In this document: one piece after another, positions 11,111 through 33,720 of the stretch
Layout: every line of letters starts with the position of its first letter
Numbering within the stretch: the stretch's first letter is position 1
NCBI RefSeq assembly: GCF_044324875.1
Contig: NZ_CP172185.1
Reading direction: 5' to 3' (one strand)
DNA from: Escherichia coli
GTDB taxonomy: Bacteria; Pseudomonadota; Gammaproteobacteria; Enterobacterales; Enterobacteriaceae
DNA length: 64,000 nt
The notes under the pieces: generated by a model
What the model was told of the DNA's origin: nothing
Seen by the model: the letters and a program-made list of their open reading frames with translations, nothing else
Database searches by the model: none
Made by a program: the position numbers and the translations under genes

Positions 11111-12355
11111 ATGGCAACACTAACCACCACCCAAACGTCACCGTCGCTGCTTGGCGGCGTGGTGATTATCGGCGGCACCATTATTGGCGCAGGGATGTTT
11201 TCTCTGCCTGTGGTCATGTCCGGGGCGTGGTTCTTCTGGTCAATGGCGGCGCTGATCTTTACCTGGTTCTGTATGCTGCATTCCGGCTTGATGATTCTGG
11301 AAGCTAACCTGAATTACCGAATCGGTTCGAGTTTTGACACCATCACCAAAGATTTGCTGGGCAAAGGTTGGAACGTAGTCAACGGCATTTCCATTGCCTT
11401 TGTGCTCTATATCCTGACTTACGCCTATATTTCTGCCAGCGGTTCGATTCTGCATCACACCTTCGCGGAGATGTCGCTGAACGTCCCTGCACGGGCAGCT
11501 GGATTTGGTTTTGCACTACTGGTGGCGTTTGTGGTGTGGTTGAGCACCAAAGCGGTCAGCCGGATGACGGCGATTGTGCTGGGGGCGAAAGTCATTACGT
11601 TTTTCCTCACCTTCGGTAGCCTGCTGGGACATGTGCAGCCTGCGACATTGTTCAACGTCGCCGAAAGCAATGCGTCTTATGCACCGTATCTGCTGATGAC
11701 GCTGCCATTCTGTCTGGCATCGTTTGGTTATCACGGTAACGTGCCGAGCCTGATGAAGTATTACGGCAAAGATCCGAAAACCATCGTGAAATGCCTGGTG
11801 TACGGTACGCTGATGGCGCTGGCGCTGTATACCATCTGGTTGCTGGCGACGATGGGCAACATCCCTCGTCCGGAGTTTATCGGCATCGCCGAGAAGGGCG
11901 GTAATATTGATGTGCTGGTACAGGCGTTAAGCGGCGTGCTGAACAGCCGTAGCCTGGATCTTCTGCTGGTTGTGTTCTCAAACTTTGCGGTAGCGAGTTC
12001 GTTCCTTGGCGTAACGCTGGGTTTGTTTGACTATCTGGCAGATCTGTTTGGTTTCGATGACTCGGCTATGGGCCGCTTGAAAACAGCATTGTTGACCTTT
12101 GCACCGCCTGTTGTGGGTGGTTTGCTGTTCCCGAACGGATTCCTGTACGCCATTGGTTATGCTGGCTTAGCGGCTACCATCTGGGCGGCAATCGTTCCGG
12201 CGCTGCTGGCCCGCGCATCGCGTAAACGCTTTGGTAGCCCGAAATTCCGCGTCTGGGGCGGCAAGCCGATGATTGCGCTGATTCTGGTGTTTGGCGTCGG
12301 TAACGCACTGGTGCATATTTTATCGAGCTTTAATTTGCTGCCGGTGTATCAGTAA
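11111..12355 (+). CDS. mtr: Tryptophan-specific permease Mtr (414 aa)
   Basis: Polytopic membrane protein of the aromatic amino acid permease family; translation matches Mtr. Confidence 0.95.
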
Positions 12356-12415
12356 TTGAACGAGCCGGATGAGCAGTTTTCATCCGGCAATAATTCACAA
12401 GTACACGAGATGGTA

Positions 12416-12946
12416 TCAAATAAACCCCTGTTTATTATAAAGTTCTTCAGCGAGAGCTTCCCCGTGCTCATCGAAAAAAGCATCGGCGATAGTTAAATTT
12501 TCTGCCTTAGGATTTGCCGTTATTTTGCTACCATTGGCATCAAATTCGAGCGCGATAGCGGTCTCCGAACCCCACCAGTAATAATAAATTAGCGCAAAAT
12601 TATTTTCCCCTGGCGTAATAAACTTCTCGATTCCCCGCACACAGGCCATGAGTGGCATGAAGATTTCATAGCTCTCTGAGAGAAATATGTGATCCATCGT
12701 GACTATCTGTGTTTCTTTATTAAAGTTGATATGTTCGGCATAAATATTCTTTTCACTTTCACCAGAATTACAAGCTGCAAGATTGTTAAGCATTTTTGCA
12801 GGATCGCCGTACAACCGCTGCTTCTCGATAAACCATGGCAACCAGTCGTCATGGTCTTTGATATTTGTTGCTGGTGAATGGAAAAACTTCTCGAGGTTAC
12901 TCTCGGTAATATGTGCATGAAGAAAAAAGGAAGCCGGTTCACTCAT
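12416..12946 (-). CDS. Hypothetical acidic cytoplasmic protein (176 aa), not recognised
   Basis: Intact ORF with no signal peptide or TM segment; sits in a segment I do not recall from the K-12 mtr-yhbW junction; no family assignment possible by eye. Confidence 0.6.
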   Translation of the reverse strand: MSEPASFFLHAHITESNLEKFFHSPATNIKDHDDWLPWFIEKQRLYGDPAKMLNNLAACNSGESEKNIYAEHINFNKETQIVTMDHIFLSESYEIFMPLMACVRGIEKFITPGENNFALIYYYWWGSETAIALEFDANGSKITANPKAENLTIADAFFDEHGEALAEELYNKQGFI

Positions 12947-13103
12947 AATGATTTTCTCTGGTAATAAGTCGATTTGTTCATTTCTCTGTTTGGCGATGAT
13001 AAAACGATGACTATTTTATAAAAGTACAGAACTGGACCTTTCATCTATTTCATATCATAAGAAAATATATACTTGAACTGGCTCAGAATAAGCGGAATAC
13101 GAA

Positions 13104-13823
13104 ATGGGGCGTAAAGGACTACTTGCTATTGTATTGTTGAGCCTGTTTATCGCCATGATTTTTCAATTTTTCTGGCCTGCCCCACACGATGAACACGTTT
13201 TCCTGCCAGTTGAAAAACCTGTCGCACCGTCTTTAAAAATCATTCATCCTGGTGACCAGTTATTTATCCGCATTCTGAAAGCGGAAGATAAGCTGGAACT
13301 GTGGGCAAGCACCAACAACAAGCCTTACGAACTCTATAAAACCTGGACTATATGCGCGTGGTCTGGTGGCTTAGGGCCAAAACACAAACAGGGGGATGGT
13401 AAAAGCCCGGAAGGTTTTTATGCCACCAACAAAGAGTTGCTTAACCCAAACAGCCGCTATCATCTGGCATTTAATATTGGTTACCCGAATGCTTACGATC
13501 GGGCAAACGGCTACACCGGTGATTTCATTATGGTTCACGGAAACTGCGTTTCGGCGGGCTGCTATGCCATGACCGATGCTGGTATTGAAGAGATTTATCA
13601 ACTGGTGGCGCAGGCGCTGAATAGCGGGCAGAAGAGCGTGCCGGTGCATATCTTCCCGTTTGCGATGGACGAAGAAAATATGCGCCAGGCGCAGGTATGG
13701 CCGGAATATAATTTCTGGCGTATGTTGAAGCCCGGCTATGATTACTTTGAAAAAAATCGCCGATTGCCAACCATCACCGTTGAAAACCGGCGTTATAAAA
13801 TCAGCCCAACAACTCTTCCTTAA
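13104..13823 (+). CDS. YafK/DpaA-like L,D-transpeptidase-fold (YkuD) protein with N-terminal signal/anchor (239 aa)
   Basis: N-terminal hydrophobic segment; strong similarity to my recollection of E. coli YafK (SGGLGPK, GDxKSPEGFY, [14 protein letters not shown], [15 protein letters not shown] with conserved His/Cys, GYDYFE). Confidence 0.75.
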
Positions 13824-14808
13824 CATCCATCGCCAGTTCAAACGAATGCAGGCGCGCCTGGTGATCGAAAATCTGCCCGTTAACCATAATCTCATCGGCG
13901 TCGGTTTCGCGCAGGATCGACTGCAAGCCGTGACGCACTTTCGCTTTATCACCCACCAGCGACATACTCAGCGCCTGCTGCACGCCATACTGCTCGGACG
14001 GTGACCAGAACTGATCCATATTTTGAATCGGCGGCGGCAGTTGCCCGGTTTCGCCACGGCGCAGCTTCACAAAGGCTTGCTGCATTGAGGTAAACAGAAA
14101 TTCAGCGTCGCGGTTGCTGTCGGCGGCGATAATATTGATGCACACCATCGCATACGGTTTTTCCAGCCGTGCCGACGGTTTGAAGTTGCTGCGATAAAGA
14201 TGCAGCGCCTGGAACAACATATCCGGCGCGAAGTGTGAGGCAAACGCAAACGGCAGACCAAGCTGCGCCGCCAATTGCGCGCTGTAAAGGCTGGAGCCTA
14301 ACAACCACACGGGGATTTTCTCGCCATAGCCTGGTACCGGGCGCACATGCGGATTGGGATCGCGGGCGTCAAACCAGTCCACCAGCTCCGCGACATCGCG
14401 GGGAAAATTATCAATATCGCCGCTCATATGACGACGTAGAGCCATCATGGTTCGCTGGTCACTACCCGGAGCACGACCCAGCCCCAAATCGATTCGCCCC
14501 GGATAGAGCGTATTAAGCGTGCCGAACTGTTCGGCGATCACCAATGGTGAGTGATTAGGCAACATCACGCCGCCAGACCCCAGATGCAGCGTAGTGGTAT
14601 TCGCCGCCAGATAGCCAATCAAAACTGATGTTGCAGCACTGGCAATGCCGGTCATATTGTGGTGTTCCGCCAGCCAGTAGCGATGATAGCCGCGCTTTTC
14701 AGCCAGACGGGCGAGGTCGAGAGAGTGGGAGAACGCTTCTCGCGCTGAAGAACCTTCGGGAATGGGGGCCAGATCGAGTAGCGAAAACGCAATGGTTTTA
14801 TCAGTCAT
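13801..14808 (-). CDS. yhbW: Luciferase-like (LLM-class) monooxygenase YhbW (335 aa)
   Basis: Translation matches YhbW; stop overlaps the 3-prime end of the preceding + strand ORF. Confidence 0.93.
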
Positions 14809-14811
14809 AAC

Positions 14812-14881
14812 AGCTCACTTTGTTACCGATTAATCTTTAATACTGCATTAAAGAGTAGTTAAAGTTGTTAACAAAGTGAGC
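14812..14881. promoter_or_regulatory. Nested inverted repeats in the ubiV-yhbW spacer
   Basis: Perfect 14-bp arms (agctcactttgtta / taacaaagtgagct) separated by about 42 bp, with an inner ctttaat...attaaag palindrome. Confidence 0.4.
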
Positions 14882-14888
14882 TATTTAC

Positions 14889-15767
14889 TTACGCTTGCAG
14901 CTCCAGCCCGGCCAGCCGACGCCAGTAGCCGTTACAATCGCTGTTTGCCGTCAACGGCAGTGGCGCAGCGCCATTTTCATTGGCGCGGAAGGCGTCGAGT
15001 ATCGCGAAAGTGTCAGTACCCTGCGGTGACAGGCGGACCACATCAACCAGCCCCTGCATGGATGCCAGCTCGTTACCGAGGTTGTAAACGTAGCCGCTCA
15101 TGGTCTGAATGCCGTTGAGTACAAACACTTGTTGGTTTTCCTGCGACAGCACGTTGCGCCCGTTCGGATACTTAATGCAGCAGGTTTCGCACTCATCTTT
15201 CGGGCGGTCTTCCGAACGCGCGGTAAAGCAGCGGGCGGAGTAGGCCAGCGGCAGATGACCGTAGCTCAGGACTTCCACTTCAAACTGGTTGCGAATGCCC
15301 AGCTCATCGCACTGATTAAGCAGATTCACCAGCCAGTCGCGGGAAAGCTCCACCGGCATACACCAGCGCATCATGCCCTGTTTGAGCAATATTTTCAGTG
15401 TCACCGCGTTGTAGCAGTTCAGCGCGTGCCCGGCGACGAACGGCAGTTTGCGTTCAGCGCACATATTCACCACGCCGAGATCGCTGGCTTCAATCAGAAA
15501 CTCACCGTTCTCAACATAGCGTTTCAGTTCGCCCAGTTCAGAGGATGCCTGCACCAGCGCCAGCGTGGAGAGCACAATCTGCTTACCACTTCCGGCGAGT
15601 GATTTTGCCATCTCCAGCCAGTCGCCAACTTTGGTTGCCCGGCGCTTGCTGCATACCGCTTCACCAAGATAAATCACGTCGGCGCTGCTGGCGGCGGCCT
15701 GCTGATAAAATTCTTCCAGCGTCTCTTTTGGCCAGTACCACAGCACTGGCCCTAAGGAATATTTCAT
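14889..15767 (-). CDS. ubiV: O2-independent ubiquinone biosynthesis protein UbiV (U32 peptidase family, 292 aa)
   Basis: Translation MKYSLGPVLWYWPKE... matches YhbV/UbiV; start chosen at internal ATG to give canonical length. Confidence 0.9.
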   Translation of the reverse strand: MKYSLGPVLWYWPKETLEEFYQQAAASSADVIYLGEAVCSKRRATKVGDWLEMAKSLAGSGKQIVLSTLALVQASSELGELKRYVENGEFLIEASDLGVVNMCAERKLPFVAGHALNCYNAVTLKILLKQGMMRWCMPVELSRDWLVNLLNQCDELGIRNQFEVEVLSYGHLPLAYSARCFTARSEDRPKDECETCCIKYPNGRNVLSQENQQVFVLNGIQTMSGYVYNLGNELASMQGLVDVVRLSPQGTDTFAILDAFRANENGAAPLPLTANSDCNGYWRRLAGLELQA

Positions 15768-15775
15768 TGCTTTTC

Positions 15776-16771
15776 TCACTGCCATTTACGGTGATACGCG
15801 CCAAGGGTGGTCTGCGTGCCTTCGGACATCGACCCGAGCGTCTCCATCCACGCGCTTTGCGGTACGAAGTTTTGCGGATCGGCCTTACAACGGTCGATAG
15901 CCTGACGCCAGACTTTCGCCACCTGGCTGACATACGCCGGGCTACGCTGGCGGCCTTCAATTTTCACCGAAGCAATATTCGCCGCCATTAACTCCGGCAG
16001 CAGTTCCAGGGTATTGAGACTGGTGGGTTCTTCCAGCGCGTGATAGCGCTCGCCGTCCACCAGATAACGCCCTTTACACAGCGTCGGATAACCTGCGTTT
16101 TCGCCATCCTGATAACGGTCGATCAGCACTTCGTTCAGGCGGGATTCCAGCCCCTGCGGCGTTTGTTGCCAGCGCACGAAACGGGCCGGAGAACACGCAC
16201 CCACAGTGTTGGGCGACTCACCCGTCAGATACGACGACAGATAGCAACGCCCTTCCGACATAATGCACAGGCTGCCGAAAGCAAACACTTCCAGCGGGAC
16301 AGGTGTGACCCGAGCCAGTTGTTTCACCTGATGAATCGACAACACGCGCGGCAGCACCACGCGTGCAACGTCAAAATGGCGATGATAAAAGTTAATCGCC
16401 TCTTCATTGGTCGCCGAAGCCTGCACCGATACGTGACGTTCAATATGCGGGTAACGTTCGGCGGCGTACTCCAGCATGGCGAGGTCGGCGAGGATCAGCG
16501 CGTCGGCACCCAGCTGCGCCGCCATATCCACGGCGCGCTGCCAACGGGCGTAACCGTCCGGATGCGCAAAAGTGTTAATCGCGATGTGAAGTTTGCGGCG
16601 ATGTTGATGGACAAAACTCACCGCTTCCTGCAATTTTTTCTCGGTAAAGTTAAGGCCGGCGAAGTGACGGGCATTAGTATCATCTTTTAGCCCGATATAA
16701 ACAGCATCTGCGCCGTTTTCGATGGTCGCCTTAAGCGCCGGGAGATTTCCGGCAGGGCAGAGCAGCTCCAT
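15776..16771 (-). CDS. ubiU: O2-independent ubiquinone biosynthesis protein UbiU (U32 peptidase family, 331 aa)
   Basis: Translation MELLCPAGNLPALKAT... matches YhbU/UbiU; immediately upstream of ubiV. Confidence 0.9.
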   Translation of the reverse strand: MELLCPAGNLPALKATIENGADAVYIGLKDDTNARHFAGLNFTEKKLQEAVSFVHQHRRKLHIAINTFAHPDGYARWQRAVDMAAQLGADALILADLAMLEYAAERYPHIERHVSVQASATNEEAINFYHRHFDVARVVLPRVLSIHQVKQLARVTPVPLEVFAFGSLCIMSEGRCYLSSYLTGESPNTVGACSPARFVRWQQTPQGLESRLNEVLIDRYQDGENAGYPTLCKGRYLVDGERYHALEEPTSLNTLELLPELMAANIASVKIEGRQRSPAYVSQVAKVWRQAIDRCKADPQNFVPQSAWMETLGSMSEGTQTTLGAYHRKWQ

Positions 16772-16979
16772 AATTTTTCCTGAAGGTTGCGCTATCAAAG
16801 CGCAAAAATGTTAACGAACTGGGATTTTAGTTAACCTTGCTGCGACAATTTTTGATTTAAGGCAGTTAAAGTTGTATTGGTGGTAGCAGCAATTTCATAT
16901 GGAATTGTTGATTTATACCGCTATGTTATTTTTCTGATATGGCAAAATAGGATGATTGTTGAAACAGGGAGTAAAACTC

Positions 16980-17504
16980 GTGTTGGATAAACTGCGTTCC
17001 CGTATTGTGCATTTGGGGCCATCTCTGTTGAGTGTACCGGTAAAACTGACGCCATTTGCGCTAAAACGCCAGGTTCTTGAGCAGGTCCTAAGCTGGCAAT
17101 TCCGTCAGGCGCTGAATGATGGCGAGCTGGAGTTTCTTGAAGGCCGCTGGTTAAGTATTCATGTGCGTGATATTGACCTGCAATGGTTTACCTCGGTGGT
17201 GAATGGCAAACTGGTCGTTAGCCAGAACGCGCAAGCTGATGTGAGTTTTAGTGCCGACGCCAGCGATCTGCTGATGATTGCGGCGCGTAAACAAGATCCG
17301 GATACGCTCTTCTTCCAGCGTCGGCTGGTAATTGAAGGCGATACGGAGCTGGGGCTGTATGTGAAAAACCTGATGGACGCCATTGAACTGGAGCAAATGC
17401 CGAAAGCCTTACGCATGATGCTGCTGCAACTGGCGGATTTTGTTGAGGCGGGAATGAAAACCGCGCCTGAAACCAAACAGACATCGGTAGGTGAACCATG
17501 CTAA
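16980..17504 (+). CDS. ubiT: SCP2-domain lipid-binding protein UbiT (YhbT), likely GTG start
   Basis: Divergent from ubiUV; translation (M)LDKLRSRIVHLGPSLLSVPVKLTPF... matches YhbT; RBS aggga precedes GTG at 16980; the track ORF begins 24 nt upstream. Confidence 0.85.
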   Translation: MLDKLRSRIVHLGPSLLSVPVKLTPFALKRQVLEQVLSWQFRQALNDGELEFLEGRWLSIHVRDIDLQWFTSVVNGKLVVSQNAQADVSFSADASDLLMIAARKQDPDTLFFQRRLVIEGDTELGLYVKNLMDAIELEQMPKALRMMLLQLADFVEAGMKTAPETKQTSVGEPC

Positions 17505-18001
17505 TTCGAGTAGAAATTCCCATTGATGCGCCGGGTATTGATGCCCTGCTGCGTCGTTCATTCGAAAGTGATGCGGAAGCGAAGCTGGTTCACGATCTGC
17601 GTGAAGATGGCTTTCTGACGTTGGGGCTGGTGGCGACAGATGACGAAGGTCAGGTCATTGGCTATGTGGCATTTAGTCCGGTTGATGTGCAGGGCGAAGA
17701 CCTGCAATGGGTCGGCATGGCACCGTTGGCGGTTGATGAAAAATACCGTGGACAGGGGCTGGCACGCCAACTGGTCTATGAAGGACTCGATTCGCTTAAT
17801 GAGTTCGGCTATGCCGCAGTGGTGACGCTGGGCGATCCGGCGCTGTACAGTCGTTTCGGCTTTGAGCTGGCGGCGCATCACGATCTGCGTTGCCGCTGGC
17901 CGGGCACTGAAAGCGCCTTCCAGGTACATCGTTTAGCGGATGACGCGCTGAACGGCGTAACCGGTCTGGTTGAGTATCACGAGCATTTCAATCGCTTTTA
18001 A
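17498..18001 (+). CDS. yhbS: GNAT-family N-acetyltransferase YhbS (167 aa)
   Basis: Translation matches YhbS; start overlaps ubiT stop; 3-prime end overlaps the convergent yhbQ end. Confidence 0.85.
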
Positions 18002-18290
18002 TCTCCGGGGTTTGCAGGCTGCTCAACAGCTCTGCAAACCCTGCGCCTTCCGCTACCAGACGCTCTTTTTGCCGTTTGGTCAGTTGCTTAACGCGATATT
18101 CCGCCCGTAGTGCCAGCGAACGATCGCCCACTGGCGCGGAAAACGCCAGCGTTAGTTCTCCTTTCCCGCGCAGTGCTTTCGCCCCTTTGCCGCTTTGGTG
18201 CTGCTGATAGCGGCGTTCGACATCTGTGGTGATCCCGGTATAAAGCTTATTGTCGGCGGTACGGATCAAGTAAAGAAACCAGGGTGTCAT
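17988..18290 (-). CDS. yhbQ: GIY-YIG nuclease superfamily protein YhbQ (100 aa)
   Basis: GIY-YIG signature ([23 protein letters not shown]). Confidence 0.9.
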
Positions 18291-18340
18291 CGTCTGCGTC
18301 GCATGTTAAGGTCAGGCCCACAGTATAAAAGAGAACAGCA

Positions 18341-18763
18341 ATGGAAACACTCACCGCCATCAGCCGTTGGCTGGCAAAACAACATGTTGTCACCTGGTGT
18401 GTGCAGCAGGAAGGGGAACTCTGGTGCGCTAATGCCTTTTATCTTTTTGATGCGCAGAAAGTCGCCTTCTACATTTTGACGGAAGAAAAAACGCGCCACG
18501 CGCAGATGAGTGGGCCGCAGGCGGCAGTTGCCGGAACGGTAAACGGTCAGCCGAAAACGGTAGCGTTAATTCGCGGCGTGCAATTTAAAGGCGAGATCCG
18601 CAGGCTTGAAGGTGAGGAAAGCGACCTCGCACGCCACGCGTACAATCGTCGCTTTCCGGTTGCCAGAATGCTGTCGGCCCCGGTGTGGGAAATCCGGCTT
18701 GATGAAATCAAATTCACCGACAACACGCTGGGCTTTGGTAAAAAAATGATCTGGCTACGTAAC

Positions 18764-18784
<21 letters not shown>
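18341..18784 (+). CDS. yhbP: UPF0306 protein YhbP (147 aa)
   Basis: Translation matches YhbP. Confidence 0.9.
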
Positions 18785-19294
<510 letters not shown>

Positions 19295-19295
19295 A

Positions 19296-20045
<750 letters not shown>

Positions 20046-20117
20046 TTATTCCCAAGAATTGATAGTGAGCGTAATATTCACGCGCTCAATTATCATAACT
20101 TATTCCTGGGGAATGCT

Positions 20118-21158
20118 ATGACTGGTCAGTCTTCATCTCAGGCGGCAACGCCCATTCAGTGGTGGAAACCCGCGCTTTTCTTTCTCGTTGTCATTGCTGG
20201 TCTCTGGTATGTGAAATGGCAACCTTACTACGGCAAAGCGTTTACTGCTGCCGAAACCCACAGTATCGGTAAATCTATCCTTGCGCAGGCGGATGCTAAT
20301 CCGTGGCAGGCGGCGTTGGATTACGCGATGATCTATTTCCTCGCGGTATGGAAAGCGGCGGTGCTGGGGGTGATCCTCGGTTCGTTGATTCAGGTGCTGA
20401 TCCCGCGTGACTGGTTGCTGCGTACGCTTGGGCAATCGCGCTTTCGCGGCACGCTGCTGGGAACGCTGTTTTCGCTGCCGGGTATGATGTGTACCTGCTG
20501 TGCGGCTCCGGTCGCGGCGGGAATGCGTCGCCAACAGGTATCGATGGGCGGGGCGCTGGCATTCTGGATGGGGAATCCGTTGTTAAACCCGGCGACGCTG
20601 GTGTTTATGGGGTTTGTCCTCGGCTGGGGCTTTGCCGCGATTCGTCTGGTGGCGGGGTTGGTGATGGTATTGCTGATTGCGACGCTGGTGCAAAAATGGG
20701 TGCGTGAAACACCGCAAACGCAGGCACCGGTCGAAATTGACATACCGGAAGCGCAGGGCGGGTTTTTTAGCCGCTGGGGCAGGGCACTATGGACGCTTTT
20801 CTGGAGTACGATCCCGGTTTACATCCTTGCGGTACTGGTGTTGGGTGCCGCTCGCGTCTGGTTATTCCCCCATGCCGATGGTGCTGTCGATAACAGCCTG
20901 ATGTGGGTGATTGCGATGGCGGTAGCGGGATGCTTGTTTGTCATTCCCACGGCGGCAGAAATTCCAATTGTACAAACGATGATGCTGGCAGGCATGGGAA
21001 CCGCTCCGGCGCTGGCATTGTTGATGACGCTCCCGGCGGTGAGTTTGCCGTCACTGATTATGCTGCGCAAAGCGTTCCCGGCGAAAGCCTTATGGCTGAC
21101 AGGGGCGATGGTGGCAGTGTCTGGTGTGATTGTCGGCGGGTTGGCGCTGTTGGCCTAA
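20118..21158 (+). CDS. yraQ: Permease-family inner membrane protein YraQ (346 aa)
   Basis: Polytopic membrane protein; translation matches YraQ. Confidence 0.9.
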   Translation: MTGQSSSQAATPIQWWKPALFFLVVIAGLWYVKWQPYYGKAFTAAETHSIGKSILAQADANPWQAALDYAMIYFLAVWKAAVLGVILGSLIQVLIPRDWLLRTLGQSRFRGTLLGTLFSLPGMMCTCCAAPVAAGMRRQQVSMGGALAFWMGNPLLNPATLVFMGFVLGWGFAAIRLVAGLVMVLLIATLVQKWVRETPQTQAPVEIDIPEAQGGFFSRWGRALWTLFWSTIPVYILAVLVLGAARVWLFPHADGAVDNSLMWVIAMAVAGCLFVIPTAAEIPIVQTMMLAGMGTAPALALLMTLPAVSLPSLIMLRKAFPAKALWLTGAMVAVSGVIVGGLALLA

Positions 21159-21192
21159 GATGTTGGATGCTCCTGAATACAGCACTGGACGG

Positions 21193-21230
21193 TCCCCTCT
21201 CCCCTTTGGGGAGAGGGTTAGGGTGAGGGG
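21193..21230. repeat. GC-rich palindromic element (box C-like; cccctctcccc...ggggagaggg...gggtgagggg)
   Basis: Perfect roughly 10-bp inverted repeat rich in C/G downstream of yraQ; resembles dispersed GC-rich intergenic palindromes of E. coli. Confidence 0.4.
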
Positions 21231-21279
21231 AACAGGTCGGCTAAGGTGTGAATATTTACTTCAACGACCGATCAATGGC

Positions 21280-21855
21280 TTATTTAATAAACGTAAACGC
21301 CGTGGTTACCCGCTTCACGCCGCTTACCCGGCTGGCAATATCTGCCGCCGCTTTCGCTTCACGTTCAGTCACTAGTCCCATCAGGAACACTTCACCGTTT
21401 TCGGTGGTCACTTTCACGTTGGACGATTTCACCAGGTCGCTGGTTAAGAGCTGCGAACGCACTTTGGTGGTGATCCACGTATCGTTAGACGCTTCGCCCA
21501 GACCAATCGGCTGGCCCTGACGAATCTCGTTATACACTTCGTTGGCACCGTCTACGCCCATAGCAATCTGTTTGGCGCGAGCCGAAAGTTCAGCGTTTGG
21601 TGACTGCCCAACCAGCAGCACTTTGCCCTGATACGCCGTGACATTAATACGGGTTTCTTTCTTAATCTGTTCGTCTTTCGACAATGCGCTGTTTACGCGC
21701 ACTTCCAGGGTACCATCGTCCACCTGGGTGCCGACACTGCGTGGGTCAGTTGCGGCTTTGGTACCTACAGCAGCGGTACCCACTACGGCAGCGGCAACAC
21801 AACCTTGCAACAGCAGCGCGGAAAGAAGGACTGCGATTGGCGATAATGCCTTCAT
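21280..21855 (-). CDS. dolP: Outer-membrane lipoprotein DolP (YraP), dual BON domain (191 aa)
   Basis: Lipobox LLQGC and two BON-like repeats; matches YraP/DolP. Confidence 0.92.
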   Translation of the reverse strand: MKALSPIAVLLSALLLQGCVAAAVVGTAAVGTKAATDPRSVGTQVDDGTLEVRVNSALSKDEQIKKETRINVTAYQGKVLLVGQSPNAELSARAKQIAMGVDGANEVYNEIRQGQPIGLGEASNDTWITTKVRSQLLTSDLVKSSNVKVTTENGEVFLMGLVTEREAKAAADIASRVSGVKRVTTAFTFIK

Positions 21856-21864
21856 GTATTCTCC

Positions 21865-22455
21865 TTAAACATCCTGGTGAGGGAAAAGCGTGTTATCGAT
21901 CAGATCGCACAGGCAATTTACCGTCAGCATATGCATTTCCTGAATGCGAGCACTACGATGCGAAGGAATGCGGATCTCCACATCCTGTGGCCCTAACAAA
22001 CCTGCAAGTTCACCGCCGTCATAGCCGGTTAATGCCACAATGGTCATATCACGCGTAACGGCAGCTTCTACCGCTTTTACAATATCGCGGCTGTTGCCAC
22101 GGGTGGAAATGGCTAACAATACATCTCCCGCATGACCCAGCGCCCGCACCTGTTTTGCATACACTTCATCATGTAAGCGATCGTTGGCAATCGCCGTTAA
22201 GACAACATTATCAGTATTTAGTGCAATGGCAGGTAAGCTGGGCCGCTCCGTTTCGAAACGGTTGATCATGCTGGCAGCAAAATGCTGTGCATTGGCAGCG
22301 GAAGTTCCATTACCACAACAGAGGATTTTGTTGCCATTGAGCAGAGACTGAACCAGCGTCATAGCTGCACGCGAGATGGCATCCGGAAGCGCCTCTGCCG
22401 CCGCAATTTGAGTTTGAATGCTTTCAGTGAAGCAAGCTTTAATTCTTTCTTGCAC
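21865..22455 (-). CDS. diaA: DnaA initiator-associating protein DiaA (SIS domain, 196 aa)
   Basis: Translation matches DiaA (phosphoheptose isomerase-like SIS fold). Confidence 0.93.
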
Positions 22456-22474: not shown

Positions 22475-22870
22475 TTATGAGTGGTCATTAAAGGCATCCT
22501 TAATCCACTCAACCTCATTCCCGGTGAAGGCTACCACATCGAACCGGCAATCCACAGTATCAAAACTCCCATTATGACGCGCGAGCCACAAGCGGGCAGT
22601 CTGTAATAATTTGTGTTGTTTGCTGCGGGTCACACTGGCTGCCGCGCCGCCATAAAGCGCAGAGCGGCGGTAACGCACCTCGACAAAAACGGTGGTCCGG
22701 CCTTCACGCATTATCAGATCGATCTCGCCGCCACGCTCGTTCACGTTAGCGGCGATAAACCGCAGTCCTTTGCCTTCCAGCCAGCGACGCGCTTGTGCTT
22801 CCCACGCATCGCCGGTCTGTTTGGTGGTTAACTGGCGGGGACTACCTGACCTTGTTGGTACTGTAGCCAT
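22475..22870 (-). CDS. yraN: UPF0102 protein YraN (131 aa)
   Basis: Translation matches YraN; 5-prime end overlaps the lpoA 3-prime end. Confidence 0.85.
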
Positions 22871-26609: not shown

Positions 26610-27401
26610 TTACAAAATTCCGAATGCGGAACAAACAATAGAGAGCACAAAAGTCACGCCGATTAACAGCACCGGATGCGCTTTTTTCACCCGCAGGAAG
26701 TAATACATCAGCAGGGTGTAGGCCATCGGTAAAATATTCGGGAAGACTTTATCGAAGAAATCCTGCTGCAGCGCGACGCTGTGGGTACTGTCGATGTCAA
26801 ACGATGTCACCACGTTAATATGAACATACGAAGCGATCAGCCCGCCGATTACCGTGATCCCGAGGATGGTTGCCGAACGGGCAATCATCTGCGAGTTCTC
26901 TCGCACTTTATCGATCGCCTTCACGCCGACTGAATAACCGACGTGGGTCCAGCCGACGCGCAGGAAAAAGATAAGCAGGTAAACGGCGAAAAATAGAATC
27001 GGCCCCAGCAAGTTTCCCTGGCTGGCAAATGATGAGCAAATTCCCGCCATAATCGGCAATAAGGTAAACCAGAAAATCGCATCGCCAATCCCGGCGATTG
27101 GGCCAAACAGTGCTACTTTGAGGCCTTTAATGGTGTCGCGGTTTTCTCCTTTTTCTTCCATCGAAATTAATAACCCCATCAGGAATCCGACCAGATTCGG
27201 GTGGGTATTAATAAATTCGAGGTTATCTTTCATCGCCGCGCTTAGGCCCGGTTTGTCGTCCTTATAAATCTTTTTCAGGATCGGCAACATCGCCCAGGTA
27301 AAACCGCCCGCCTGCATCCTTTCGTAATTAAAGCTCGCTTGCAGCAGTGACGAACGAAAGCCCAGACGGGTGATATCTTTTTTACTGATTTCAGATCCCA
27401 T
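26610..27401 (-). CDS. agaD: PTS galactosamine-specific EIID component AgaD (263 aa)
   Basis: Mannose-family IID membrane protein; internal ATG (MGSEISKKDI...) chosen; track ORF extends upstream into agaC. Confidence 0.88.
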   Translation of the reverse strand: MGSEISKKDITRLGFRSSLLQASFNYERMQAGGFTWAMLPILKKIYKDDKPGLSAAMKDNLEFINTHPNLVGFLMGLLISMEEKGENRDTIKGLKVALFGPIAGIGDAIFWFTLLPIMAGICSSFASQGNLLGPILFFAVYLLIFFLRVGWTHVGYSVGVKAIDKVRENSQMIARSATILGITVIGGLIASYVHINVVTSFDIDSTHSVALQQDFFDKVFPNILPMAYTLLMYYFLRVKKAHPVLLIGVTFVLSIVCSAFGIL

Positions 27402-28194
27402 TGCTGTAGTCCTCTTCTTCATTTTTACTGGCAACGGGCTGCGGTTGCGCTTGCTGCCGGGATTTCGCATTGAAAAACTCATACACCGCAAAGCCTGCGC
27501 CCAGTACGGCAACCGGCAACAGGTTGCTGACCTGGATGTAGCAAACAAACAGGAAACCGGCGATCAGGTAAGGGATATATTGCGCTTTGAACATCACGCG
27601 CAGCAGCAAGCCAAAACCAACGGCAGGCAGAATACCGCCAGCCACTTCAAAGCCGTGGGTCAGCCAGGCGGGCATCGCTTTCACCAGCGCCTGCATCGCC
27701 CCCTGTGCCAGGTAAGTACAGAGGAAAGCAATCACCGCATACGCTGAAGCGACGATGAGCATCGTTGTCCAGTTAAGTCGGGAAAACGCTGCCGTATCCG
27801 CCTCTTTTGCGCATTTATCGGCTTTGGTCATAAATAATGAGAAAGCGGAATAGAAGAACAGAATGACGTACTGCATTAACAAACTAAACGGCAGGCCAAG
27901 ACCAATTGCCGTTTTGGCATCAACGCCCGTAGACCATGCAATGACAGTGGTCATCAGACCCGCCATAATCGGGTTGGGCGGCTGAACACCACCTGCAGGG
28001 GTTAATCCGGCGAAAGCCAACTCTGTCAGACCACCGGTAATTAAGCCAGTCTGAATATCACCGAGAATAGCGCCAGTTAGGGTACAAACGATTATCGGGC
28101 GGAATAAAAATAAGGCTTCCAGCCAAAAATCAATCCCCAGAACGAAAACTAACGCCGCCAGGGATAATCCCTGAAGTAGGGTTATTTCATGCAT
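27391..28194 (-). CDS. agaC: PTS galactosamine-specific EIIC component AgaC (267 aa)
   Basis: Mannose-family IIC membrane protein. Confidence 0.9.
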   Translation of the reverse strand: MHEITLLQGLSLAALVFVLGIDFWLEALFLFRPIIVCTLTGAILGDIQTGLITGGLTELAFAGLTPAGGVQPPNPIMAGLMTTVIAWSTGVDAKTAIGLGLPFSLLMQYVILFFYSAFSLFMTKADKCAKEADTAAFSRLNWTTMLIVASAYAVIAFLCTYLAQGAMQALVKAMPAWLTHGFEVAGGILPAVGFGLLLRVMFKAQYIPYLIAGFLFVCYIQVSNLLPVAVLGAGFAVYEFFNAKSRQQAQPQPVASKNEEEDYSNGI

Positions 28195-32835: not shown

Positions 32836-33720
32836 TTAAAGGAAATGACAGAATTTACCGACGATACCGAGAACCACGGTAACTGCAATCAGGCGCAGCG
32901 GACTCCAGCCGCGGCGTACCAGCCAGAACATGGTCAGGGTGTAGACCAGCGGTAAGAAGGCAGGCATCAGTTTGTCGATAACATCAGCCTGTAACTTAAC
33001 CACTGCATCGCCAGCGGTGATTTCCAGCGTGGTGCTTAAACGAACATAGGTTGCTACCAGCGCGCCGATTACCGTCATCCCAACGATTGACGCAGCATGG
33101 CCGACTTTTTTGGTATTCGCTTTAATGAGTGGAATCGCCGCCACGCCCATGCGGTAAGCATAATGCGCCAGACCAAAACGCAGCCCCAGGTGTACCACGT
33201 TAAACAGCACAATAAAGACGACTGCGCCAAGAATAGAGCCTTGTAGCGCGAGGCTTGCGCCTATCCCGCCACAAATCGGCAGTAGCGTTAGCCAGAACAT
33301 CGCATCGCCAATCCCGCCGAGCGGCGCACCGACGGCAATTTTGGTGCTCTGAATACTGTTAACGTCCTGCTTAGAACGCTCCATCGCAAGGATAATGCCG
33401 ATAACAAACGTCACCAGAAACGGATGGGTATTGAAGAAACCCATATGCCCTTTCATGGCGCGCGCCAGGTCGCGTTTATTAGTGTGGATCTTTTTCAGAG
33501 CAGGCAGCAGACCGTACAACCAGCCAGAAGCCTGCATACGTTCGTAGTTAAAAGACGCTTGTAACAGCATGGAACGCCAGGCGACGCGGTTGATATCTTT
33601 TTTCGTCAGCTCTGCGCCAATGCTCTGATCTTCATAAACGTTTTCATTAACGCCTGTCAGCAGTGTTTCTTCGTTTTCACTGACGTTCGGCAGGGTGGTT
33701 TGATTAGATGCCATCTTCAA
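32836..33720 (-). CDS. agaE: PTS N-acetylgalactosamine-specific EIID component AgaE
   Basis: Mannose-family IID membrane protein, paralogous to agaD. Confidence 0.88.
   Translation of the reverse strand: MKMASNQTTLPNVSENEETLLTGVNENVYEDQSIGAELTKKDINRVAWRSMLLQASFNYERMQASGWLYGLLPALKKIHTNKRDLARAMKGHMGFFNTHPFLVTFVIGIILAMERSKQDVNSIQSTKIAVGAPLGGIGDAMFWLTLLPICGGIGASLALQGSILGAVVFIVLFNVVHLGLRFGLAHYAYRMGVAAIPLIKANTKKVGHAASIVGMTVIGALVATYVRLSTTLEITAGDAVVKLQADVIDKLMPAFLPLVYTLTMFWLVRRGWSPLRLIAVTVVLGIVGKFCHFL

Follow-up and report, generated by a model that had tools for sequence, protein, structure and literature searches.

Gene overlaps and a 3' stem-loop around yhbS in the ubiT-yhbS-yhbQ cluster of Escherichia coli

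Gene order and features around yhbS

The gene yhbS (hqbA) lies in a tightly packed cluster in the window, by which we mean the whole stretch of E. coli chromosomal DNA that was analysed (64,000 nucleotides; contig NZ_CP172185.1 of assembly GCF_044324875.1). Gene coordinates were obtained from the open reading frame listing and the sequence itself, together with the RefSeq annotation of E. coli CFSAN018748, which is 100% identical over 1.7 kb around ubiT-yhbS-yhbQ and whose annotation was carried over to the window. At an identity of at least 95% the region is found in 5,424 of 5,426 complete E. coli genomes. The features are collected in Table 1.

Table 1 Features of the ubiT-yhbS-yhbQ region (window coordinates).
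Feature	Position	Strand	Basis or remark
ubiU	15776-16771	-	RefSeq annotation
ubiU-ubiT divergent control region	16772-16979		Annotation and sequence comparison
ubiT (yhbT) CDS	16980-17504	+	GTG start; TAA stop 17502-17504
yhbS Shine-Dalgarno AGGTGA	17489-17494	+	Inside the last ubiT codons
yhbS (= hqbA) CDS	17498-18001	+	167 aa; TAA stop 17999-18001
yhbQ CDS	17988-18290	-	100 aa; stop TGA = complement of 17988-17990
p19/RNase III duplex	18000-18023	both	Matched by eye; K-12 has A, the window G, at 18018
Stem-loop, 16 bp	18006-18043	+	Begins 5 nt past the yhbS stop; all of it within yhbQ codons
Untranslated stretch with C>G	18044-18200	+	C/G 1.25-1.7 over ~150 nt, antisense to yhbQ; candidate Rho loading region
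yhbS mRNA 3' terminus	18050-18051	+	Coordinate transfer from the yhbS CDS; 3' UTR ~50 nt
yhbP	18341-18784	+	RefSeq annotation
yhbO	18764-19282	-	RefSeq annotation

UbiT carries an SCP2 domain (Pfam) and is an accessory factor in anaerobic ubiquinone synthesis. YhbS is a GNAT acetyltransferase (Pfam) whose crystal structure (4RS2) spans residues 2-167, and as an acetyltransferase that binds Hfq it now bears the name HqbA (PMC10710024). YhbQ is a GIY-YIG nuclease with its Pfam domain at residues 4 to 76; the stem-loop and the convergent overlap analysed below sit in the tail formed by residues 77 to 100. Comparison of published primers and text with the sequence identified the TTGAT motifs at 16852-16856 and 16908-16912, upstream from ubiT, as the halves of the Fnr sites mutated in PMC10470549. 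A scan of positions 14000-22000 against Rfam (E≤1) produced two chance-level matches only, and none at the gene junctions.

Overlapping neighbours are common in this genome. Co-oriented overlaps elsewhere in the window are found for rbfA/truB, yrbN/deaD, yraN/lpoA, and nagA/agaF, and two of the nine convergent pairs in the window overlap, both of them within the yhb cluster. Since E. coli has a total of 586 co-oriented and 75 convergent overlapping pairs (PMC4161906), the two yhbS overlaps are not unusual; they are real, conserved, and ordinary tight packing. The yraN/lpoA overlap of 43 nt (22828-22870) is far above the usual 1-8 nt and may be an issue of start codon annotation.

Some further features were recorded in passing. 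The second convergent pair of the cluster, yhbP/yhbO, shares 21 nt (18764-18784) and does so in 36 loci, with 15 nt in 13 loci and a 68-nt gap instead of an overlap in Mixta. On the yhbP strand, antisense to yhbO, a region of Rho termination has been published at MG1655 position 3299102 (approximately 19154 in the window); it lies about 370 nt into yhbO, much of which is therefore covered by transcripts from yhbP. The divergent starts of yhbQ and yhbP are 50 nt apart (18291-18340; 49-54 nt in 75 of 82 loci), which means that their promoters must overlap each other or the adjoining coding sequences; within this spacer a ATGTTAAGGT motif is conserved, and a TATAAA / TAGCAT hexamer is -10-like on both strands. 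Farther away, between mtr and yhbW (11402-13643), the transposase gene of IS621 (IS110 family) is split by an inserted ISEc31 of the IS3 family, and the laboratory-strain version of the mtr-yhbW region that we examined is shorter by the amount of annotation that the insertion accounts for. In the aga cluster (26610-27402 and 32838-33716) the PTS IID gene is annotated as two overlapping coding sequences, likely the result of a frameshift, whereas agaE carries an internal stop and is a pseudogene.

The overlaps at the two ends of yhbS

The initial annotation had proposed that the start of yhbS overlaps the stop of ubiT by 7 nt, and both the sequence and the RefSeq annotation bear this out, the shared bases being ATGCTAA at 17498-17504. 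The junction reads GGTAGGTGAACC ATG CTA ATT, with the yhbS ATG at 17498-17500 followed by the out-of-frame ubiT stop, and the core GG of the Shine-Dalgarno sequence is placed 6 nt before the ATG. An in-frame TGA at 17492-17494, within the Shine-Dalgarno sequence and one codon upstream from the ATG, makes a more upstream yhbS start impossible. Reading the sequence by eye we saw no in-frame ATG, GTG, or TTG before approximately codon 40, and a downstream start would therefore lose the N-terminus, which is conserved from residue 1 in the junction alignment of 80 species and is also present in 4RS2. With three of the four boundaries being stop codons and the fourth, the yhbS ATG, blocked by the TGA, there is no alternative start or stop that removes the overlaps.

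Conservation was followed in a scan of species-representative genomes, giving 80 Enterobacteriaceae loci with YhbS identities of 81-100%. The stop positions suggested by the initial annotation also stood in the alignment: of the 81 loci that could be scored at the ubiT/yhbS junction, 80 have the 7-nt overlap, which is also found in Erwiniaceae, and 77 of 82 loci share 14 nt between yhbS and yhbQ. A search for YhbS homologues returned matches that were all at least 79% identical, and the more distant Mixta and Aliivibrio loci were instead found through the representative genomes. The sequence TAGGTGA-N3-ATG is kept in nearly all 80 species (one locus has TGGGTGA), and the ubiT tail just upstream varies; the last ubiT codons thus look constrained by the ribosome-binding site of yhbS. 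The third base of the yhbS Leu-2 codon is only A or G in all species (CTA, CTG, TTA, or TTG), so that the ubiT stop stays TAA or TGA. In a Mixta locus with YhbS 67% identical (Mixta/Pantoea type) the junction is ATGTTAA and the 7-nt overlap is kept, and in an Aliivibrio-type locus (YhbS 52% identical) ubiT and yhbS overlap by 11 nt with no adjoining yhbQ. From these two loci the ubiT/yhbS junction is older than the convergent overlap. In one locus, from Trabulsiella guamensis, ubiT (region 2483-2656 of that locus) appears to end early, with an in-frame stop approximately 350 nt before the yhbS ATG, while yhbS and yhbQ are intact; a ubiT pseudogene or a tblastn match broken in two could account for this.

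RT-PCR has shown that ubiT and yhbS form one transcription unit and both respond to Fnr, and YhbS has no role in ubiquinone synthesis (PMC10470549). The induction of ubiT by Fnr is approximately 35-fold, and HqbA is abundant aerobically while UbiT is barely detectable, for which a start site or promoter inside ubiT has been suspected (PMC10710024). Coupling by termination and reinitiation is predicted for distances from -8 to +10 nt, the commonest overlaps being 4, 1, and 8 nt (PMC10666635). Here the ubiT stop lies 4 nt beyond the first base of the yhbS ATG, and a ribosome that ends ubiT could restart on yhbS. Because yhbS has its own, strong Shine-Dalgarno sequence it could also be translated independently, and the aerobic production of HqbA with barely detectable UbiT indicates that yhbS translation is not strictly dependent on ubiT translation. 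Translational coupling from ubiT to yhbS, which we infer from the layout of the junction, would thus be at most optional.

At the other end of yhbS, the proposed 14-nt overlap with convergent yhbQ was likewise recovered from the sequence and the RefSeq annotation, at 17988-18001. The yhbS gene ends CAT TTC AAT CGC TTT TAA; the yhbQ stop is the antisense of T-C-A across the codons for Phe164 and Asn165, and the yhbS stop is in turn the antisense of the yhbQ codons for Ile-Lys. The His-Phe-Asn-Arg sequence at the YhbS C-terminus is conserved, and the Phe164 codon (TTC or TTT) matches a yhbQ stop of TGA or TAA, so the shared bases vary only in ways that are neutral for both genes. In this frame an antisense stop arises from any Phe codon when the next codon begins with A, which explains where yhbQ ends without selection on the overlap. 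There is no intergenic space for yhbQ; its frame continues to the first antisense stop, the one made by the conserved Phe164-Asn165, and the 14-nt coding overlap is fixed in this way. The exceptions are three Citrobacter loci with 4 nt (a 1-nt insertion), a Buttiauxella locus with 22 nt, and a Franconibacter locus with 25 nt; in Mixta the overlap is 20 nt.

Longer YhbS proteins also occur in the databases (P0006, P0001, and P0010; 218-236 aa) owing to loss of the stop. One Salmonella enterica form, with 26 member sequences, reads HFNRF-K through a TAA to AAA change and is 51 aa longer, running antisense through yhbQ. The long E. coli forms, each known from a single contig, seem to stem from 1-nt changes in the T4 run that precedes the stop, possibly through sequencing error.

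A stem-loop within yhbQ and the 3' end of yhbS mRNA

Shortly after the yhbS stop the DNA contains a palindrome with the perfect core GGGTTTGCAG / CTGCAAACCC. Its fold has a minimum free energy of -27 kcal/mol (z -6.3) on the yhbS-sense strand and of -25 kcal/mol (z -4.2) on the other strand. The stem is rich in G+C, as in an intrinsic terminator, but it is followed by UGCGCCUUCC, with no U tract directly after it on either strand and a T5 run only 22 nt further on. Lacking the U tract, it was missed by a consensus promoter and terminator scan, which found no terminator for yhbQ either. When 1.8 kb of each locus was scanned in sliding 45-nt segments (approximately 585), the segment beginning at the yhbS stop was the most stable one in 17 of 82 loci and within the top 2% in 35 of 82. 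The folds downstream of the yhbQ, yhbP, and yhbO stops were no better than shuffles (z -0.35, -0.86, and +1.34, respectively), and the structure is thus specific to the yhbS 3' end.

Covariation of the stem was analyzed in the 35 distinct sequences with an intact LQTP tail of YhbQ, aligned without gaps and anchored on codons. Paired cells amounted to 81.5% vs at most 48% for slid partners, both sides had changed in nine of 15 pairs, and the covariation score was reached by none of 500 shuffles, a statistic that is inflated by kinship among the species. The stem changes are nevertheless spread over several genera, in which the stem sequences themselves differ (Buttiauxella, Franconibacter, and Atlantibacter). 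A UA to CG pair change is present in both Citrobacter and Atlantibacter, and the second base of a Gly/Ala/Ser/Thr codon covaries with the third base of a Thr codon (GC to CG). Against synonymous recodings of the same protein, the native sequence was the more stable one (p≤0.05) for 25 of the 35 sequences when folded as yhbS-sense RNA and for 15 of the 35 when folded as yhbQ-sense RNA, and the yhbS-sense fold was the more stable of the two strands in 25 of 35. It appears from these comparisons as if the stem-loop is a selected element.

Two other origins for the palindrome were considered and rejected. It could be a by-product of a conserved YhbQ tail peptide, which is countered by the recoding control and by the covariation between nonsynonymous and synonymous sites. 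It could also serve the yhbQ mRNA; however, it lies inside the open reading frame and precedes the yhbQ stop by 16 nt, so that trimming of the yhbQ mRNA back to the stem would leave no stop, and it is the yhbS-sense strand that folds more stably and more often beats the recodings.

The stem is absent from Enterobacter, Klebsiella, and Kluyvera, where the QTP codons are deleted, and it is consequently not indispensable; several loci of these genera have other GC-rich palindromes 26-50 nt further in. In the Mixta locus a hairpin followed by TGAGTTTTT, with five U residues, is found at the same place inside yhbQ, and the Aliivibrio locus has a terminator-like hairpin with a T-rich tail approximately 10 nt after the yhbS stop, which is truly intergenic there. 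Judged by these distant loci, a 3' stem-loop is a long-standing feature of the yhbS transcript that in Enterobacterales has been written into the tail of yhbQ. As far as we have found, a covariation-supported hairpin inside yhbQ has not been described earlier, and we regard it as a fresh instance and not as a new kind of element.

The 3' end of the yhbS transcript has been mapped. A published TRS study lists a steady-state "primary" terminus for yhbS at MG1655 position 3300206/7, with the coding sequence at 3300255-3300758 and p ~1e-31 (PMC10687069 Supplementary Data 2-4). Transferred to the window, the transcript ends approximately 49 nt into yhbQ and 7-8 nt after the stem. The Term-seq tables of Adams et al. 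hold no 3' end labelled yhbS, yhbQ, or yhbT, and their bicyclomycin data show no Rho region at the yhbS 3' end, where expression may be too low for detection; the SMRT-Cappable-seq supplements do not mention the locus. Rho-terminated transcripts are known to acquire precise ends just after stable stem-loops without U-rich sequence, through trimming by PNPase and RNase II (PMC6061677). The stable stem without a U tract and its precise end fit this pattern and the C-rich stretch lies downstream, for which reason we consider it most likely that Rho would terminate yhbS transcription within the yhbQ antisense region and that exonucleases would then trim the transcript back to the hairpin. Alternatively, the hairpin may act as a weak, U-poor intrinsic terminator.

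Antisense pairing, alternative explanations, and comparison with known systems

The initial annotation had further suggested that the yhbS and yhbQ mRNAs are antisense to each other at their 3' ends, and this was already documented in the literature together with double-stranded RNA. Beside the mapped yhbS 3' end, the pairs yhbQ-yhbS and yhbO-yhbP belong to a list of 165 convergent pairs whose transcripts overlap in at least 50% of 58 MG1655 transcriptomes (ExcludonFinder, PMC12288877). Huang et al. report a perfect 22-nt duplex, CAGUCUGCAAACCCCGGAGAUU / UCUCCGGGGUUUGCAGACUGCU, named "yhbQ yhbS" and present at 6.85 and 3.21 RPM by strand (PMC7373196 Table S3). It is one of the RNase III products captured with p19, which binds only perfectly paired sense/antisense duplexes (PMC7373196). 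In vivo the two RNAs do form a duplex, which RNase III cuts. Positions 17988-18050 are where the stable yhbS mRNA is complementary to yhbQ, a stretch of no fewer than the final 63 nt of the yhbQ open reading frame, stop included.

From the position of the duplex, the cut on the yhbS strand would fall right after the stop and remove the protective hairpin, and the cut on the yhbQ strand would fall 10 nt before the stop and leave a stop-less message. The duplex is scarce (3-7 RPM) and one of thousands, convergent overlaps being generally poor sources of p19-captured RNA (PMC7373196). The mutual interference that the initial annotation considered possible is a reasonable proposal. HqbA is described as highly expressed (PMC10710024), and none of the data sets searched showed a 3' end for yhbQ. 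The rarer RNA should suffer more from pairing, so yhbQ is the partner expected to be damped; we predict a modest and mainly one-way damping of this weaker partner, and any effect at the protein level is likewise something we infer. Deletion of yhbQ or yhbP on a yhbS plasmid left the yhbS overexpression phenotype nearly or wholly unaltered.

Taken together, the arrangement is best explained, with a probability of roughly 0.6, as ordinary packing in which an Fnr-regulated operon junction adjoins a fixed convergent overlap and an apparently selected yhbS 3' hairpin, with a predicted modest damping of yhbQ. One objection, that a start or stop has been wrongly assigned and the genes do not truly overlap, is hardly credible. 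Short overlaps do sometimes arise from miscalled start codons, and no locus-specific support for this was found; stop codons that the sequence itself sets take part in each overlap, the yhbS ATG has the preceding TGA, the conserved Shine-Dalgarno sequence, and the conservation of residue 1 described above, and the inspected RefSeq records give the same coordinates throughout a region that nearly every complete E. coli genome contains. An overlap selected for mutually exclusive expression of ubiT-hqbA and yhbQ, with transcriptional interference and RNase III acting as a switch, is unlikely; an example would be that YhbQ, a DNA-damage nuclease, is silenced under anaerobic induction of ubiT-hqbA by Fnr. 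Such a role would agree with the listing of yhbQ-yhbS as an excludon, a class whose pairs are less co-expressed in single cells, with the RNase III duplex, with the strong Fnr induction of ubiT, and with an arrangement and overlap kept from Escherichia to Mixta. This conservation is, however, fully explained by the Phe-Asn at the YhbS C-terminus and the lack of an earlier stop, and the overlap length drifts (4, 20, 22, and 25 nt). The hairpin moreover ends most of the stable yhbS RNA 49 nt into yhbQ, limiting interference, and the plasmid deletion of yhbQ left the yhbS phenotype with little or no change.

We attach a low probability to an interleaved organization, in which ubiT-yhbS would be read through yhbQ antisense into yhbP, and yhbO through yhbP antisense into yhbQ, the four small genes being co-regulated in two opposed sets. 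Noncontiguous operons of this kind are represented by the menE-menC/ytkD type of S. aureus. The conserved order ubiT+ yhbS+ yhbQ- yhbP+ yhbO- would suit it, as would yhbQ and yhbP starts only about 50 nt apart, the lack of a canonical terminator after yhbS or yhbP, and the region within yhbO where Rho terminates transcription of the yhbP strand. Against it, the primary yhbS 3' end is mapped at +49 and not past yhbP, the conserved yhbQ-yhbP spacer with its -10-like hexamers (seen by eye) suggests separate promoters, and ExcludonFinder gives only three noncontiguous operons in E. coli, yhb not among them (PMC12288877). Equally improbable to us is an oxygen-responsive version, where Fnr-driven ubiT-hqbA transcription would leak through the hairpin, silence yhbQ by antisense and RNase III action, and feed yhbP; if it were true, the hairpin, encoded by covarying codons of the YhbQ tail, would determine how much transcription stops and how much reads through.

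There is little here beyond bookkeeping, with the overlaps annotated, the operon published, and the antisense pair catalogued. The practical side is that the same 65 nt hold the last 21 yhbQ codons, the yhbS stop, the yhbS 3' hairpin, and the RNase III site, so a clean yhbQ deletion takes away the 3' end of the hqbA mRNA and a C-terminal hqbA tag breaks yhbQ. The locus is also a small and clear example of the RNA structure of one gene being maintained by covariation inside the coding sequence on the opposite strand, and shaping the YhbQ tail.

The yhb arrangement falls into types already known, with an operon junction whose overlap allows coupling, a convergent excludon present in the catalogue, and a 3' stem-loop of the protective sort. 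Like the coupled pairs trpB-trpA and menD-menH (PMC10666635), ubiT and yhbS are on one mRNA (PMC10470549) with the stop within -8 to +10 nt of the start and the Shine-Dalgarno sequence inside the upstream reading frame; unlike the -4, -1, and -8 classes of that study the overlap is 7 nt, and UbiT and YhbS are not known subunits of one complex. The yhbS/yhbQ pair resembles other convergent excludons (PMC12288877) in having tail-to-tail neighbours on opposite strands, overlapping transcripts, and double-stranded RNA cut by RNase III, but in this pair the coding sequences themselves overlap, which makes the transcript overlap obligatory and not conditional. With noncontiguous operons such as mpaA-ycjG-tpx of E. 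coli the cluster shares same-strand genes parted by an opposite-strand gene and antisense transcription across it, whereas the yhbS 3' end is mapped before yhbP and a ubiT-yhbS-yhbP transcript is putative. The closest likeness of the yhbS 3' end is to the protective 3' stem-loops of Dar and Sorek (2018, PMC6061677), with a stable stem lacking a U-rich tail, a precise end just after it, and C-rich sequence downstream. In contrast to those cases, the yhbS stem-loop sits in the coding sequence of a convergent gene, its Rho dependence is presumed, and its covariation ties nonsynonymous sites of YhbQ to synonymous ones.
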